Assembly: GCA_027064425.1 (NCBI GenBank)
Contig: JAMOPO010000052.1
Location: forward strand, 140,521 to 204,520
Reading direction: 5' to 3'
DNA length: 64,000 nucleotides
DNA from: Methanobacteriota archaeon
GTDB lineage: Archaea; JAADCQ01; Methanopyri; Methanopyrales; Methanopyraceae
Part shown: positions 4,945 to 28,210 of the stretch, piece by piece
How the letters are laid out: the number at the start of each line of letters is the position of its first letter
Position numbering within the stretch: position 1 is the stretch's first letter
Notes under the pieces: generated by a model
What the model saw: only the letters and a program-made list of their open reading frames with translations
The model's database searches: none
Told to the model about the DNA's origin: nothing
Program-made: the position numbers and the translations under genes

Positions 4945-6405
4945 TTGGCCAGGTTGTTCGGCAGGTCGGCGTGGCTTGCCCTAGCAGCCGGTTTAACAAC
5001 GTTGTTGGCCTACTTGGCGCACCTCGGGCACGAGTCCGTGACCCACGCCCCGAACCGTCACGCGGCCGAAAACGCCCCGCTCCACTACGCGATCTGCGCC
5101 ATCATCGCCGCGTGCGCGGTCCGGCTCACGCCGGGTTATTCAGCCCTGAACGTCCTCCTGAACTGCGCGCTCAGGGAGACGCCGAGACCGCTACCGACCG
5201 GGCCGTGGCTGGCGTGGCAAGGGCTCAAGGTCGGGGCCCTGATCGTCCTCCTGCACGGATTCCCCACGGTCCCCGTCGTGCACTGGATCGCCTCCGGCAA
5301 CCCGGCCCGGGTGGTCCTGGCCCTCGGGATCCTGCTCGGTCCCCCGTTCAAGGTCAGGGCCGCGATGCTCCTGCTCTCTCACCTGGCCAGCGCCGCGCTG
5401 GACGCGCAGGAGTACGCGAACGACCGCGAGCTGCTGGAGTCCGCGATGATCTCGCACGGCCTCCGCATCGCGGCCGTGGTCCTGGGGATCGCCACCGTCA
5501 CCCTCGCCACCTACCCCATTATCTCAATGTACCTCCTCCCACTGCTGGCCTTCCTGGCGGCCCTCAGCCTGCACCTGTGGTCTCAGTCCCGGCTTCCATG
5601 GCGGGAGTACCGCCAACTGAGCGGGCTGATCGACCGGATTAAGCGAGGCCTTATCCTGGCGGTGGCGCTGCTCCCCACCGTTCCGGTCCTGGACCTCCTG
5701 ACCGGCGTCCCCACGGAGCTGACGATCCACGCGTGGGCCACCATGGTCGGAGAGGCCGTCCTGCAGCCCCACTCGGTGAAGCTCGACCCCGCCTCCTACC
5801 TGACCCAAACCCCCGCCCAGCTCTCCCGAGCCTGGAGCGCGGGACGCTCCCCGGTGTGGGGCGTCACCGGAGACCGGCTGCAGGTCGTGGTCAGCGACGG
5901 GCGCGGCCACGGCTGGGTCATCGACCCCAGGTCCGGGGCGATCAGAGGTACTCTCAAGGTTCCCATCGAGGCCATTGAGCGGCAGGAGGACGCGCTCCGG
6001 CGTGCGTTCCCGTACCTCCGACCCGGGGCGCCCGTGCTGAGGGACGGTCGAGTCCGGGTGAGCGCGTGGATCGTCGCCGACGTGTGGCTGCCGTTCCTGG
6101 GGTTCACCCTGGCACTGCCCGTCTCGGGTGATCCGGCCCTCCCGAGGAACGAGTGGGGGCTCGCCTGGTACCCGGCCCGCTGGAGGGGTCGACTGGTGCC
6201 CGTGCTCATCCCGATCGAGACGCTGGCGATGCCGGTCCTTGAGGTGCCGGGCGAGGCCCTGGTCTCGATCCCCCCGCCGCGTTCCCTGAAACTGTGGCTG
6301 CACGGGCCCGGGTTCGTCCGCATCGACCGGGGGAGGGTGATCCTCCTGAGACCGGAGTATCGGTCCGACGGGACGCTGAAGCGCCTGGAAGCGATCAGGG
6401 TGTGA
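4945..6405 (+). CDS. Uncharacterised membrane protein with soluble C-terminal domain
   Basis: 3' part of ORF 4609-6405. Start re-called at TTG 4945 after a GGGGG SD to avoid overlapping rpl14e. Several TM helices. Confidence 0.6.
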
Positions 6406-24140: not shown

Positions 24141-24665
24141 TTATCCTTTACGCGTGAACCTCCGGCTAACGCGCTCCTGACGCGACCGCTTGTTGGCACA
24201 CTCAGAGCACACGTCGACTTTCTTGTTGCTCTTAAACCTCTTACCACACAGTTTGCACCTGCACTCGTAGAGGCGCGCCCGCTTCCCCTCCCGCCTCGCC
24301 ATCCGCTTGATCCGGCTCGTCCGCTCCACCTCCCGGGTCAGGTAGAACCAGGTATCACCGAACACGTCTCGGCCCCGCATGACCACCTTCCTCGCCACCT
24401 CCAGCCCGGACGGGTCCCCCCTCATGGCCCGGACCATCGCGCTTAAGAACTGCCTCTCCCGGTACCGGTAGATGTCGATGGCGTCGTTCGGGCAGACGCG
24501 GACGCACTCGTCGCACGCGTCGCAGGCCTCCAGGTTTACGATCACGACCTCGTCGCCCTTCACATCCAGCACGCCGCGGTCGCACACCTCCACGCAGAGC
24601 GCGCAGGAGGGACCCTCGCAGCGCTCCCGATCGATCTCGATCCTTCGGACCGCCAACTCCTCCAC
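24141..24665 (-). CDS. 2[4Fe-4S] ferredoxin-domain protein with C-terminal Zn-finger
   Basis: CEGPSCALCVEVC, CDACDECVRVCP, then CKLC..CSEC. Confidence 0.8.
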   Translation of the reverse strand: MEELAVRRIEIDRERCEGPSCALCVEVCDRGVLDVKGDEVVIVNLEACDACDECVRVCPNDAIDIYRYRERQFLSAMVRAMRGDPSGLEVARKVVMRGRDVFGDTWFYLTREVERTSRIKRMARREGKRARLYECRCKLCGKRFKSNKKVDVCSECANKRSRQERVSRRFTRKG

Positions 24666-24673
24666 CCCAGGGG

Positions 24674-25078
24674 ATGAAACGCTTGAACGTGCATGTTAGG
24701 GAGCGGGAAGGAGACGTCGTGCTGGAGTTCTGCGGGGAGGACGGGTGCATCCAGGTGTCGGCCCGGGCCTTCTACACCGCGGTGATAATGAGCGGCGAGG
24801 ACACCGTGGAGAAGACCAAGGAGCTCCTCACCAAGCCCTTCGAGCTGCTCGGGGAGGATCCCCCCGAGGTGCGCGTCCGCAGGTCGGAGGATCCGGAGGG
24901 TACCCTGCTGAACCCTTGGGTGACCTCGTCGCACGAGGAGGTCGAGTTCTTTACGTTCGAGCTGGAACGGGGAGGCGAGACTTTAAAACTCTCCTTGGCA
25001 GTCCCGCGCGGCTCTCGGGGCGGCACCTCAAAAATCAAGGAGGTCATTAACCTATTGAAGTCTCGACTCCCGTGGTGA
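24674..25078 (+). CDS. Hypothetical protein
   Basis: ATG with GGGG SD; acidic coding composition. Confidence 0.65.
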   Translation: MKRLNVHVREREGDVVLEFCGEDGCIQVSARAFYTAVIMSGEDTVEKTKELLTKPFELLGEDPPEVRVRRSEDPEGTLLNPWVTSSHEEVEFFTFELERGGETLKLSLAVPRGSRGGTSKIKEVINLLKSRLPW

Positions 25079-25096
25079 GCCGGAGGTGAGCTCGTC

Positions 25097-26026
25097 TTGT
25101 ACCCGCGGGGTAGAAAGGCCACCCTGGCCGCGATCCTGCGCACGATCCTGAAGGATCAGCCCTCAACGCAGAAAGAGATAGCCGAGAAGGTGGGCGTCTC
25201 GCGGCGGTACGTGACGGAGCTGCTTCAGCCGCTGATGGAGAAGGGGGCCGTTTTCCGGACGTACGCCGTCGACATGACCAAGCTCCGCCGGCACTTCCCC
25301 GAGCTGTTCGAGGAGCTCGGTCGACACATCTACGAGGACATCGAGTCGCACCTGGAGAGCGTCCGCCCCTACTTCGAGCGGATGATCGACCTGACGGAGT
25401 CACAGGTGGAGAGCGCGATCCTGGCCATCGAGGAGGACCCGAGCCTCGCCCAGAAGATCGTGAAGATGGACGAGGAGGTCAACCGGCTGGACGAGGAGAT
25501 CCGGCTGTACGTTCGAGCGCTTCCAACGTTCCACCCGTGCGAGGAGGCGGGGAAAGTCTCGACGCTCCTCCTCGAGATCTCGCACTGCATCGAGCGGATC
25601 GGAGACTACGCGTGCAACATCGCGGAGGTGGCGGACAGGATCGGAACGCTCTCCGACCTGGGGTGCTGGGAGGAGCTCAAGGAGGCCGCGGAGCGGGCCC
25701 GGTCGATGGTCTCGACCTCGTACGACGCGTTCCTATCCCTGTCCAAGCGTCGGGTCAAGAAGGCCGCGGAGGACGTGTACCGGCAGGAGGAGCGCGTCCA
25801 CGATAGCATAATAAAGGCCTGCGACGATGCGATCAAGGAAACGGAGGAGTTTCCGTCCCGCGCCCGGTACCTCTTCGCCGTGTCACGCGTGACGAAGGAC
25901 GTCGAGCGCATCGCGGACAAGGCCGTCGATATCGTCGACTACACGCGAGAGCTGGTCGAGGGTCGACCGCGCGACCTGACCCCGGAGCAGGAGGTGAGGG
26001 GAACCATCCCGGCCGACACCGCGTAA
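25097..26026 (+). CDS. HTH + tandem PhoU domain regulator
   Basis: TQKEIAEKVGVSRRYV HTH; IERIGDYACNIAE and VERIADKAVDI PhoU motifs. Confidence 0.85.
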   Translation: MYPRGRKATLAAILRTILKDQPSTQKEIAEKVGVSRRYVTELLQPLMEKGAVFRTYAVDMTKLRRHFPELFEELGRHIYEDIESHLESVRPYFERMIDLTESQVESAILAIEEDPSLAQKIVKMDEEVNRLDEEIRLYVRALPTFHPCEEAGKVSTLLLEISHCIERIGDYACNIAEVADRIGTLSDLGCWEELKEAAERARSMVSTSYDAFLSLSKRRVKKAAEDVYRQEERVHDSIIKACDDAIKETEEFPSRARYLFAVSRVTKDVERIADKAVDIVDYTRELVEGRPRDLTPEQEVRGTIPADTA

Positions 26027-26042
26027 GGGGGGTGCCGGGACG

Positions 26043-26768
26043 GTGCACTACGTCGGGCTGGGCGGCTTCGGATGCCGGTTCTCCTCCCACGCTTCCAACG
26101 CCGGCTTCCGAGTGCTCGCCTGCGTCGGCTCCAAGGGTGACCTCCTGCGGGTCTCGGAGGGCAAGACCGTCGAGGTAGCACCGGACATCGGCTACAACCG
26201 CGACTGGCGTCGAGCCTCCGAGGAGCTCGCGGATCACGAGAAGGCCATGAACACGATCCGCAAGTGCCTCGAGCAGCACCTGGACGGCCCCACGCTCATG
26301 GCGTTCGGACTGGGCGGAGCAGTGGGGTTCGCGCTCGCCCGACCCTTCCTCGAGGACCCTCCCGTCCCCTTCGTCCTCCTCGTCACGATCCCGGGCGAGT
26401 CCGAGGATCCCCAGGTCCGACGCAACGCGCGCGAGCAGGTGGACGTGGTGCTGAAGGTCTCCTCCAAGCTCCCGATCCTCTGGGTGGACAACGATATTGG
26501 TGGAGGCTACGACCGGGTCAACCGGATGCTCGAGAAGACGCTCTCCGAGTTCCGGGAGTTCCTGAACGTCCCGGTCGAGGAGCTCCCGAACATGGCCGGG
26601 AACTACGCGGTCTCCCCCTCCCTACCCGGCGAGCGCGTGACCGAGGAGATCGTCAAGACGAACCCCAGCGAGATCCGTCGGCTCGTGAGCGATCGGGAGC
26701 CCGAGGAGCGCGTGATCAAGGAGGAGCGGAAGGGGCCGGACCCGGACTCACTGAGGGAGCTGTTCTAG
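26043..26768 (+). CDS. Truncated, divergent tubulin/FtsZ GTPase-domain protein
   Basis: VGLGGFG (T1), FGLGGAVG (degenerate T4), VTIP..E..RRNA (T5), WVDND (T6), YDRVNRML (H7). No C-terminal domain. Confidence 0.7.
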   Translation: MHYVGLGGFGCRFSSHASNAGFRVLACVGSKGDLLRVSEGKTVEVAPDIGYNRDWRRASEELADHEKAMNTIRKCLEQHLDGPTLMAFGLGGAVGFALARPFLEDPPVPFVLLVTIPGESEDPQVRRNAREQVDVVLKVSSKLPILWVDNDIGGGYDRVNRMLEKTLSEFREFLNVPVEELPNMAGNYAVSPSLPGERVTEEIVKTNPSEIRRLVSDREPEERVIKEERKGPDPDSLRELF

Positions 26769-26781
26769 GGGGCGGCCTCCG

Positions 26782-27009
26782 ATGACTCGGAAGGCCAGGG
26801 TCACGCTCACGCTCTCAGAGGACGCCCTGGCCCGGGTCCTGGCGGCCAAGGACGCGCTGGAGGGGGAGAGCATCTCCTCCACGGTCGGCAAGCTGGTGAA
26901 GTTCGGGTTCGCCTACCTACGAGAGAAGTTCCCCGAGCTCTTCGAAGGCATCGACCTGGAGGAGTACCGCCACAAGGCCCGAGAGCGCTGGTTCAGCGAG
27001 CGGTCATAA
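26782..27009 (+). CDS. Small ribbon-helix-helix-like DNA-binding protein
   Basis: KARVTLTLSEDAL..ESISSTVGKLV beta-helix-helix pattern; 75 aa. Confidence 0.6.
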   Translation: MTRKARVTLTLSEDALARVLAAKDALEGESISSTVGKLVKFGFAYLREKFPELFEGIDLEEYRHKARERWFSERS

Positions 27010-27046
27010 CTTTTAACTCCCCGCCTCCCCACGCCCGGGGCGCCGC

Positions 27047-28210
27047 ATGGAGGTTCCCTCGGGCTTCCTGCTTGGCGGCGTGAAGCGGGACGTAGGCGTG
27101 GGCCTGCTGTTCTCCGAGACCAGGTGCTCGGTCGCGGGCGTATTCACGCGGAACACCCTCCGCGCCGCTCCCGTCGAATACTCCGAGGAGGTGTGCTCCC
27201 GCGGGCGCGCCCGTGGAGTGATCGTCAACAGTGGCCACGCGAACGCTCTCACCGGCGAGGAGGGGATGCAGGACGTCCTCCGGATGGCCGACGGCGCCTC
27301 ACGGCTGTTCGGGGTGCCCGACGACGAGGTTCTAGTGTGCTCGACCGGAGTCATCGGCGAGCGGCCGCCCGTGGACAGGATCCTGAAGCTGGCCGAGGAG
27401 GTCTGGGAGTCCCGGATGGGGTCCGATCCGGAGCACGTCCGCGCCTTCAACGAGGCCATCATGACGACGGACACTCGGGAGAAGGTCTCGTCGTACTCCG
27501 GCGGCGACTGGTGCCTCCTCGGGGTGGCGAAGGGCGCCGGCATGATCCACCCGCGGATGTCGACCATGCTGGCCTTCCTGATCACGGACGTCCGGGCCGC
27601 GTCCCACGATCTCCAGCCCGTGCTGCGAGACGCCGTCGAGGACACGTTCAACATGATCAGCGTGGACGCCGACGAGAGCACCAACGACACCGTCCTCCTG
27701 ATGGCCAACGGGGCGTCCGGGCTCGAGGTGGGCAGGGACGTGCCGGAGTCTGAGTTCGAGAAGGCCGTGAGGAAGGTGTGCGAGGACTTGGCCCGGGAGA
27801 TCGCTCGGGACGGTGAGGGATCGACCAAGCTCCTGGAGGTGGAGGTGCGCGGGGCTCGGTCCCGGAAGGAGGCCAGAAGGGCTGCCAGGGCGGTGGTCTC
27901 CTCCAACCTGGTGAAGGCCGCCCTCTTCGGCGAGGACCCGAACTGGGGGAGGGTGGGCGCGGCGATCGGCGCCGCGCGGGTCGATGTCGACCCGAGCTCC
28001 CTCAAGATCATCTTCGAAAGCTCGGAGGGAAGGGTGGTAACCTACGACGGCGGTCCCGTCAAGTTCGATGAGGAGGAGGCGGCGCGGATTTTATCCGACC
28101 GAGAGGTCCGGATCGTGGTGGACCTGGGAGTGGGTGACGAGTCCGCCCGCGCCTGGGGGTGCGACCTGACCTACGATTACGTCAAGATAAATGCCGAGTA
28201 CCGCACGTGA
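27047..28210 (+). CDS. argJ: Glutamate N-acetyltransferase / ornithine acetyltransferase
   Basis: [54 protein letters not shown]. Confidence 0.96.

Follow-up and report, generated by a model that had tools for sequence, protein, structure and literature searches.

A divergent single-domain relative of tubulin and FtsZ paired with a ribbon-helix-helix gene in Methanopyrus: a possible partition-like module

What would an archaeal chromosome do with a tubulin-like gene that has no C-terminal domain and is tied to a small gene for a putative DNA-binding protein? This question is raised by a locus in a 64,000-nucleotide stretch (hereafter the window, meaning the whole stretch analysed) of G000, a 1.54-Mb, 99 % complete genome of the genus Methanopyrus. 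The window is C52:140521-204520 of G000, with a GC content of ~64-71 % in this region. An earlier reading of the same DNA (the original prediction) described a run of four genes here: a hypothetical gene, a helix-turn-helix (HTH)-PhoU regulator, a degenerate tubulin/FtsZ homologue that we call the mini-tubulin, and a ribbon-helix-helix (RHH) gene. All four open reading frames (ORFs) are indeed found in that order on the + strand, and Pfam confirms the HTH-PhoU gene. The two genes with which we are mainly concerned, together called the cassette, are the following.

26043..26768, + strand: mini-tubulin gene (subfamily Q), 241 amino acids (aa), GTG start, assigned from fold, profile homology and the ratio of nonsynonymous to synonymous substitution rates (dN/dS)
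26782..27009, + strand: RHH (CopG-like) gene, 75 aa, constantly paired with the mini-tubulin gene; the protein is extended by a helical part at its C-terminus

The mini-tubulin has no Pfam or NCBIfam match at E<=1, and no PHROG or PADLOC match. The Pfam Tubulin model (PF00091) finds neither it nor 12 family members at E<=1, and there is likewise no match to Pfam Tubulin_2, TubZ_C or FtsZ_C (PF12327). A sequence search of the Protein Data Bank (PDB) with a 7-sequence profile returned signal recognition particle, FtsH and lipase entries at the top (E>=0.001), which we took as chance matches, and FtsZ was not among the matches. The relationship appears when structures and profiles are compared. 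An AlphaFold2 model made with 7 homologues has a predicted local distance difference test score (pLDDT) of ~80-90 at residues 1-148 and <50 from residue 178, and the order of its strands and helices is that of the FtsZ N-domain. Thus, the model contains what defines the tubulin/FtsZ fold, namely a Rossmann-like N-domain (S1-S6/H1-H5) followed by the core helix H7, and the protein lacks what defines FtsZ itself, namely the C-terminal domain and the T7 motif NxDxxD. When the PDB was searched with Foldseek, 120 entries matched at E<=0.001, of which the best 50 are all FtsZ, CetZ or TubZ (E 6e-7 to 1.3e-5, probability 1.00, template modelling (TM) score on the query ~0.5); among the matches listed are the CetZ entries 3zid, 4b45 and 4b46 and the TubZ entry 4ei7. 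When the family was aligned by hhalign with a 17-sequence FtsZ/CetZ-like alignment, the probability was 91.6 % (E 8e-7), with query residues 2-181 placed on FtsZ residues 47-239 of 400, and with a 19-sequence family alignment it was 94.2 % against FtsZ (E 1.2e-7). In a hidden Markov model (HMM) search of 1.84 billion representative proteins, the best matches are the 12 clusters of the family itself (E 5e-93 to 1e-29), and the runners-up are a true FtsZ (E 4e-4, with Pfam Tubulin and FtsZ_C) and a TubZ-like protein (E 7e-4). The ESM Atlas model has a predicted TM score of 0.80, and its neighbours in the Atlas are tubulin/TubZ-like clusters, mostly viral, and CetZ clusters (TM 0.70-0.75, residues 1-222/233). 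From the agreement of Foldseek, hhalign, the HMM search and the ESM Atlas, we conclude that the mini-tubulin is, as modelled and aligned, a very divergent, single-domain protein of the tubulin/FtsZ superfamily; the homology that had been read from the ORF holds, with a tubulin fold predicted even where the Pfam Tubulin model itself is silent. The ESM Atlas also has short tubulin-domain clusters of 174, 215 and 227 aa, viral and from Bacteroidota. N-domain-only relatives of tubulin may therefore be more widespread than the mini-tubulin family, or these clusters may be fragments.

We set the motif register by hhalign against the invariant columns of FtsZ and read it against the functional roles of the FtsZ loop residues. 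The resulting features of the mini-tubulin are listed here.

26055..26078, + strand: T1-like glycine loop GLGGFGCR, residues 5-12, in the hhalign register
26307..26333, + strand: T4-like signature GLGGAVGFA, residues 89-97, replacing FtsZ GLGGGTGTG
26586..26606, + strand: T7-equivalent PNMAGNY, residues 182-188, register uncertain by +/-2 residues
26610..26735, + strand: predicted disordered charged linker, residues 190-231, pLDDT <50
26736..26765, + strand: acidic-hydrophobic tail PDPDSLRELF; a similar peptide ends every subfamily

In T1, residues G5, G7, G8 and G10 match FtsZ G51, G53, G54 and G56 and GxGGxG is kept, with FtsZ Asn58 replaced by Arg12. The NTD of FtsZ T2 has become VGS, and the T3 pattern GxGAG..P..G is reduced to G50 alone. 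The T4 loop carries the change that the original prediction had pointed out and does not match the signature [SAG]GGTG[SA]G; all 19 family sequences compared have G89, G92, A93 and G95. The T5 Pro and Glu are kept (P117, E121) along with the Asn-Ala that follows, as are the T6 Asn-Asp (N150, D151) and the H7 Asp (D157). In T7, Asn183 is conserved in at least 90 % of the family and both acids of FtsZ NxDxxD are absent. The T7 region had been called degenerate, which is right as far as the missing catalytic acids go, but the residues cited for it, LNVPVEEL (174-181), are the end of H7, and T7 lies at ~182-188. The 58 residues after T7 consist of a weakly conserved 'L-DGE-V-xxE' segment, a charged Pro-containing stretch and the tail; residues 190-241 (linker plus 10-residue tail) include 13 D/E, 10 K/R and 6 P of 52. 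The C-terminal domain had been reported missing, and this is what we observe: the alignment stops at FtsZ residue 239 of 400, and residues 178-241 have pLDDT <50. By eye, the tail resembles that of the host FtsZ, …SIDELEKIL, and Methanopyrus FtsZ tails in general read …[ST][IL][DE][DE]LEKIL. From the model and the alignments, we conclude that the mini-tubulin consists of a predicted N-terminal nucleotide-binding domain, H7, a disordered linker and a short peptide, and that the C-terminal domain is absent.

The mini-tubulin belongs to a family of ~12 clusters in three subfamilies that are ~25 % identical to one another: subfamily Q, the query type (238-241 aa); subfamily B, with P0003, P0004 and P0005 (276-291 aa); and subfamily C, with P0006-P0014 (230-270 aa). 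Residues G7, G10, G50, D54, G89, G92, A93, G95 and P117 are shared throughout, N183 nearly always, and the C-terminal peptides read …DLDPWSLL, …DLDPLDFL, …DIDSFFDL and …SPWDIF. A tree had been proposed as a check, and in a quick maximum-likelihood tree the family is monophyletic (Shimodaira-Hasegawa-like approximate likelihood ratio test, 99) and branches apart from the FtsZ, CetZ-like and TubZ-like sequences sampled, a placement that carries a long-branch caveat. In species-representative genomes, a contig scan finds the family in Methanopyri only, at 3 loci. Five of the six Methanopyrus genomes carry it, G000 included; a further match, in G023, is a true FtsZ-family gene. For one B-type protein the database gives a Thermoproteota metagenome-assembled genome as the source. 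The scan for family loci was made with the C-subfamily alignment, and its result for genomes outside Methanopyrus covers C-type loci. We conclude that members of the family are carried by chromosomes of Methanopyri and by hydrothermal contigs that cannot be assigned.

An RHH-like ORF follows the mini-tubulin gene on the same strand, 6-69 nucleotides (nt) downstream, in 11 of 13 distinct loci: the window, G001, G002, L040, L042, L043, L044, L045, L046, L049 and L050, where the RHH ORF is cut by the contig end. These counts exclude locus L051, an 84-nt fragmentary match, as do all others, and the neighbourhood counts leave out P0004, P0005, P0011 and P0013. The tie to a small DNA-binding gene, which had been compared with TubZ/TubR-type pairs, is thus a property of the family. 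The two loci without an RHH gene are L008 (B-type) and L041 (C-type, P0006). At L008 572-1120 (- strand), in the M. kandleri-type genome G002, the place behind P0003 is taken by an ORF of 183 aa that matches HEPN weakly (E 0.022), and L008 and L041 have an MFS-like neighbour in common. The RHH alignment has the pattern R-x-R-V-x-L-x-L(P/S), a G-x-(S/P)-x-S turn and an extension with a DDWEE-like motif. The RHH protein of L044 passes the Pfam thresholds for RHH_9 and RHH_1, and the best sensible PDB match of the RHH family profile is CopG, at full length (E 0.036). The window RHH protein itself has no Pfam match, and it is because of this family evidence that we call it an RHH protein. The RHH family has 13 clusters among 5.8 billion proteins, which mirrors the size of the mini-tubulin family. 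A third conserved gene was sought around the cassettes and none was found. Several genomes hold paralogues: two in G004, Q and B types in G002, and the Q type plus a C-type RHH fragment in G000. This last fragment, at C51:1734-1877, is where a 1878-bp contig ends inside an RHH gene 92 % identical to the L040/L045/L046-type RHH, and judging from this match G000 probably holds a second, C-type cassette that was cut by the assembly.

To see how the cassette relates to the genes beside it, we give the remaining features of the locus.

24674..25078, + strand: hypothetical 134-aa gene, Methanopyrus-only, no family match; context, travels with the HTH-PhoU gene
25097..26026, + strand: HTH-PhoU regulator, 309 aa (Pfam PhoU 1.5e-27, HTH_24 2e-8); context only
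26027..26034, + strand: GGGGGGTG, a ribosome-binding-like motif 8 nt before the mini-tubulin start, identical in G000, G001 and G002
26025..27033, no strand: 1009-bp presence/absence segment (mini-tubulin and RHH genes), missing in a co-occurring relative

Along the four-ORF run the intergenic gaps are 18, 16 and 13 nt. Both cassette genes are present in G000, G001 and G002, 16 nt behind the HTH-PhoU gene. In G003, G004 and G005 the hypothetical gene, the HTH-PhoU gene and argJ are contiguous, and the mini-tubulin and RHH genes are both missing; the spacing from HTH-PhoU to argJ is 54 nt in G003, 54 nt in G005 and 5 nt in G004, and the HTH-PhoU protein is 84 %, 82-84 % and 58 % identical to the window copy in G003, G005 and G004, respectively. 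Public metagenome contigs aligned to the window tell the same story in two runs, X1 and X2, each of which holds a cassette-bearing and a cassette-less form. The cassette-less contigs join position 26024 to 27034, skipping 1009 nt, by way of a 40-nt filler like that at the G003 junction, and their depth is 49.5 vs 14.3 for the cassette-bearing form in X1 and 751.5 vs 66.7 in X2. This joint belongs to another lineage and is not a deletion inside one population. Over window positions 24600-27400, both runs contain two co-occurring Methanopyrus lineages that are ~85-88 % identical, the cassette-less one being ~3.5-fold deeper in X1 and 11-fold deeper in X2. The polymorphism and the G003-G005 loci together imply that the pair is gained or lost as a unit and is dispensable. 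At the paralogous loci there is no PhoU, hypothetical 134-aa or argJ neighbour. We conclude from these gene arrangements that the real module is the mini-tubulin plus the RHH gene, and that the HTH-PhoU gene and the hypothetical gene are independent of it. Of the four-gene module first proposed, the conserved pair therefore stands and the other two genes separate from it. The proposed link to phosphate through PhoU is not supported, as the HTH-PhoU-argJ arrangement exists without the pair in three genomes and the paralogous cassettes have no PhoU.

The motif GGGGGGTG directly follows the HTH-PhoU stop and there is no space for a separate mini-tubulin promoter, which suggests read-through transcription. 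The pair of the window is probably read through from the HTH-PhoU operon, and HTH-PhoU is probably co-transcribed with the pair yet outside the module. An inverted repeat at the junction of the two genes (26003-26013 / 26034-26044) was considered as an operator and rejected, as it is not conserved in G001 or G002. A scan for sigma-70 promoters and terminators, which is made for non-archaeal signals, gave nothing useful. The 134-aa protein has no family match in Pfam, NCBIfam or PHROGs. Upstream of the run is a divergent ferredoxin-like gene, and argJ lies 37 nt downstream. The ferredoxin-like gene (window 24141-24673) encodes a 2x4Fe-4S protein with a Cys-rich C-terminal part and is divergent to the 134-aa gene. 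The longest ORF starts of these two genes are only ~8 nt apart; one or both genes probably start further inside, or else their promoters overlap.

The cassette genes are under selection in the genomes compared. The mini-tubulin orthologues in G001 and G002 are intact, 238 aa long and 65-67 % identical to the window protein. Their dN/dS is 0.028 between G001 and G002 (dS 0.20) and 0.17-0.22 between G000 and G001/G002, where dS is saturated. The RHH protein is 88 % identical in G001 and G002, with dN/dS 0.02-0.04, and the neighbours have values of 0.07-0.11 (argJ) and 0.07-0.13 (HTH-PhoU). As judged from these substitution patterns, the mini-tubulin gene is under purifying selection and is not a pseudogene. 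The decay that had been named as a possible refutation is thus not seen (dN/dS 0.03-0.22, intact frames).

What, then, does the pair do? Relatives of the window cassette on other contigs bear repeat arrays upstream. In L043, ~eight units of CGGGnnGAGnn lie at 5845-5923 with a period of 11 (7.4 copies according to Tandem Repeats Finder, TRF), directly preceding a TATA-like TTTTAATAT box ~45 nt from the start codon. In L050, seven GCACG cores lie at 1637-1711, again with a period of 11 (6.9 copies), and the array ends 20 nt before the start codon. The score of each of these arrays was reached by 0/200 mononucleotide shuffles. L044 has six C-tracts at 5875, 5897, 5908, 5929, 5940 and 5950 (spacing 10-22 nt) followed by the TATA-like AAAAATTCTTAAG, a series that we read by eye and that TRF did not call. 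Upstream of the C-type cassette of L049, at 609-830, are three direct repeats of 35-63 nt (GTCGTGGTACCAGGGGTG…AATCGGAAACGGG) spaced 76 and 96 nt apart; this contig is 5.2 kb long and has no recognisable genes. On the four repeat-bearing contigs (L043, L044, L049 and L050), 0 ORFs have a tblastn match in G000 at 1e-8, 1 of 44 scanned ORFs has a Pfam match at 1e-3, a weak one to a glycosyltransferase (ORF counts include overlapping frames), and the sole PHROG match, 0.0075, is at chance level. When 61 relatives were searched with the 1092-aa ORF of L044, a single marginal match appeared, in a non-Methanopyrus genome (E 8.9e-6). Such a profile is as expected of archaeal viruses or plasmids.

The systems with which this layout invites comparison are ParM/ParR/parC, TubZ/TubR/tubC and the archaeal RHH centromere-binder SegB (PMC9178275, partial text). 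Because the pair with its iterons combines the iteron-NTPase-RHH layout of ParMRC with the NTPase fold of TubZRC and with the RHH centromere binders of archaea, we favour a partition-like module, in which the RHH protein would bind DNA and recruit a non-canonical tubulin-fold protein that binds nucleoside triphosphate (NTP); we hold this tentatively, at somewhat less than an even chance. RHH dimers would coat the repeated DNA sites, repressing the operon and building a nucleoprotein complex, as with ParR, SegB and omega. The RHH extension, the mini-tubulin tail, or both would couple the two proteins. For nucleotide binding, the mini-tubulin would use its retained glycine loops (T1 and most of T4); the Glu of T5 and the Asn-Asp of T6 are kept as well. 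The losses (T2 NTD, T3 GAG, T4 Thr, the T7 acids and the activating domain) argue for a slow or non-hydrolysing assembly or switch and not for a treadmilling filament. Nucleotide-dependent assembly or switching of the mini-tubulin would then position the bound DNA.

The likeness to ParMRC of plasmid R1 lies in the order of iterons at the promoter, an NTPase gene and a small adaptor with an N-terminal RHH and a C-terminal extension. It extends to the repeats, since those of R1 parC also have a period of 11 bp. The fold of the NTPase differs, being that of tubulin here and of actin in ParM, and our RHH protein is likened to ParR by its layout. With TubZRC, the pair has in common a tubulin-superfamily NTPase, a small DNA-binding protein and, in the relatives L043 and L050, upstream iterons. 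It also has a flexible C-terminal tail on the NTPase, a part that TubZ needs for its dynamics (PMC5322520, partial text), and its nearest ESM Atlas clusters are viral and TubZ-like. It differs from TubZRC in that the adaptor is an RHH protein whereas TubR is a winged HTH protein (PMC9178275, partial text), in that the NTPase gene comes first and the adaptor gene second, in lacking the C-terminal domain and the T7 acids, and in that the window copy is chromosomal and iteron-free. SegAB is likewise a chromosomal archaeal pair of an NTPase and a site-specific RHH DNA-binder (PMC9178275, partial text), but SegA is a Walker-type (ParA) ATPase, and the RHH proteins are likened at the level of fold class. 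The more specific idea of a hybrid segregation system, type II in its RHH adaptor, 11-bp iterons and NTPase-then-adaptor order and type III in its tubulin-fold NTPase, is possible but, in our estimate, on the doubtful side; such a system would serve both hyperthermophilic archaea and the mobile elements associated with them, and at its core would be a tubulin-superfamily protein smaller than any other known and able to function with no C-terminal activating domain. The chromosomal copies of Methanopyrus would descend from it by domestication. The window copy, which is chromosomal, iteron-free and expendable, may be domesticated or residual, and what it does now may have shifted towards regulation or towards interaction with FtsZ or SepF.

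Several observations weigh against a partition-like module. Nucleotide binding, polymerisation, DNA binding and contact between the mini-tubulin and the RHH protein are all predictions. We know of no cytomotive tubulin that works without a C-terminal domain and the T7 acids, which makes filament-driven segregation doubtful. Clear arrays are found in just 2 of 12 examined loci: there is no iteron array at the chromosomal copies, namely the window copy, L002 (the G002 orthologue), L008, L040, L041, L042, L045 and L046, and among the arrays listed by TRF for G000 none has a period of 10 or 11, the periods being 12, 21, 23 and 33. The arrays could also be autoregulatory operators of the ordinary kind. 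That the contigs with iterons are mobile is argued solely from their absence of recognisable genes; they have no terminal direct or inverted repeats, tRNAs or Rfam families, and neither a tblastn search with P0009 of phage and plasmid collections nor a C-subfamily scan of IMG/VR gave a match. Spacer-like matches of at least 28 nt to G000 were not found either, a test that is empty because G000 has no CRISPR array in a simple k-mer scan. Finally, the relationship between Q-type and C-type RHH proteins is only moderately supported (hhalign E 2.7e-4, probability 42 %).

The strongest rival, which we consider rather unlikely, is that the mini-tubulin modulates division by capping the end of a filament of the single host FtsZ, as the original prediction had suggested, or by using its FtsZ-like tail to compete for the membrane anchor SepF. 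It would in this way cap or tune the Z-ring, with the RHH protein as a transcriptional regulator like CdrS with ftsZ2. A protein that keeps the nucleotide-face loops and has lost the T7/activating face has the geometry expected of a cap, and its tail PDPDSLRELF resembles not only the Methanopyrus FtsZ tails but also the acidic-hydrophobic C-terminal domain of archaeal FtsZ that binds SepF (PMC8178401, partial text). SepF is encoded in G000. One canonical FtsZ is found in 6/6 Methanopyrus genomes, and at least 2 matches are found in 31/35 other relatives, copies being counted as Pfam Tubulin matches. RHH-ftsZ pairs also occur in other archaea (PMC7439475, partial text), and one is seen at L037, where the RHH gene is upstream of FtsZ. 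Yet sister lineages with the same FtsZ do without the module and are the more abundant ones in X1 and X2, and a host division factor would not explain family members on contigs without cellular genes and with iterons upstream. The gene order is also opposite to that of cdrS-ftsZ2. There, CdrS lies upstream of a full-length FtsZ2, whereas here the RHH gene lies downstream of a truncated protein that is not FtsZ2; Methanopyrus has no second canonical FtsZ, and the long RHH extension is absent from the 53-aa L037 example. What the two pairs have in common is an RHH gene adjoining a co-oriented FtsZ-family gene in an archaeon. Compared with archaeal FtsZ1 (G000 C52:133665…, 400 aa, then secE-nusG), the mini-tubulin has the same N-domain fold, T1-T6 order and H7, and a disordered linker with an acidic-hydrophobic C-terminal peptide, but it is only 17-22 % identical in profile alignments, has lost the T2 NTD, T3 GAG, T4 Thr, T7 NxDxxD and FtsZ_C, lies outside the ftsZ-secE-nusG context and is dispensable.

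As to the FtsZ genes themselves, the canonical FtsZ of G000 lies at C52:133665-134147, ~7 kb before the window (L009 1366-2568), and is followed by secE and nusG; in G005 the gene is divided between two contigs. Of the 7 tubulin-family matches in G023, several fall within L006 (G023:C17:13536-16970), a cluster of three tandem FtsZ/CetZ-like genes of 324, 329 and 332 aa.

An addiction, toxin-antitoxin-like or conflict module is less probable still. Here the mini-tubulin would be a growth-arresting mimic of FtsZ, neutralised by the RHH protein with its extension, and the operon would be autoregulated. This reading draws on the two tightly spaced genes, the autoregulator-type protein with N-terminal RHH and extension, the patchy presence among close relatives, the several paralogues per genome and the copies on contigs that resemble mobile elements. 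However, the RHH gene lies downstream and its product is more conserved than the putative toxin (88 % vs 65-67 %), and toxin-antitoxin pairs usually show the opposite pattern. The seven to eight phased iterons also exceed typical toxin-antitoxin operators, which have fewer repeats, and there is no PADLOC match.

Improbable, too, is a nucleotide-sensing co-regulator, in which a non-polymerising mini-tubulin would modulate the RHH protein or HTH-PhoU, for example by linking phosphate or energy state to expression. The retained phosphate-binding glycine loops would suit such a sensor, as would the position of the pair 16 nt behind HTH-PhoU in G000, G001 and G002, with a conserved ribosome-binding-like motif and no space for a promoter. 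The PhoU linkage is nevertheless limited to one lineage, where it may be a mere site of insertion or retention, given that 3 genomes have HTH-PhoU but not the pair, and that 10/10 paralogous loci have the pair but no PhoU.

That the gene is a decaying relic, a truncated FtsZ paralogue without function and heading for loss, is a reading that the degenerate motifs, the missing domain and the loss of the gene from sister lineages might suggest, but it is close to refuted by dN/dS of 0.03-0.22, comparable to 0.07-0.11 for argJ. Against it stand also a frame that no orthologue and none of the 12 family clusters has lost, and the conservation of length, motifs and tail across subfamilies only ~25 % identical.

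The homology is already on record as annotation. The M. kandleri orthologue AAM02076.1 (UniRef100_Q8TX16) and its paralogue AAM02339.1 (Q8TWB0) carry the database names 'FtsZ GTPase involved in cell division' or 'cell division protein FtsZ', and RefSeq copies of the mini-tubulin are mostly named 'hypothetical protein'. Full-text and accession searches, whose coverage does not extend to subscription reviews of archaeal tubulins, found no paper on the mini-tubulin or the module, and a term search of Makarova & Koonin 2010 (PMC2875224) found no mention of Methanopyrus. The original prediction had called the module undescribed, which holds for the literature found but not for the name of the M. 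kandleri orthologue. What appears not to have been described is that the protein has a single domain, that its partnership with the RHH protein is fixed, that some relatives bear iterons and that the pair is polymorphic in its presence.

Whether the mini-tubulin acts in partition or in division, the M. kandleri orthologue is misleadingly labelled 'cell division protein FtsZ'. Should the mini-tubulin cap FtsZ or compete for SepF, then a lineage with a single FtsZ would provide a natural protein that inhibits archaeal division. If instead the partition-like reading that we favour is correct and the module segregates DNA, then, as far as is known and as a literature search indicates, Archaea would have their first partition system of the tubulin superfamily. 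The iterons and two small genes would in that case make a compact, heat-stable cassette for vector stabilisation in hyperthermophiles, and the tubulin N-terminal domain alone would be a working unit, which bears on the origin of the two-domain FtsZ/tubulin fold.

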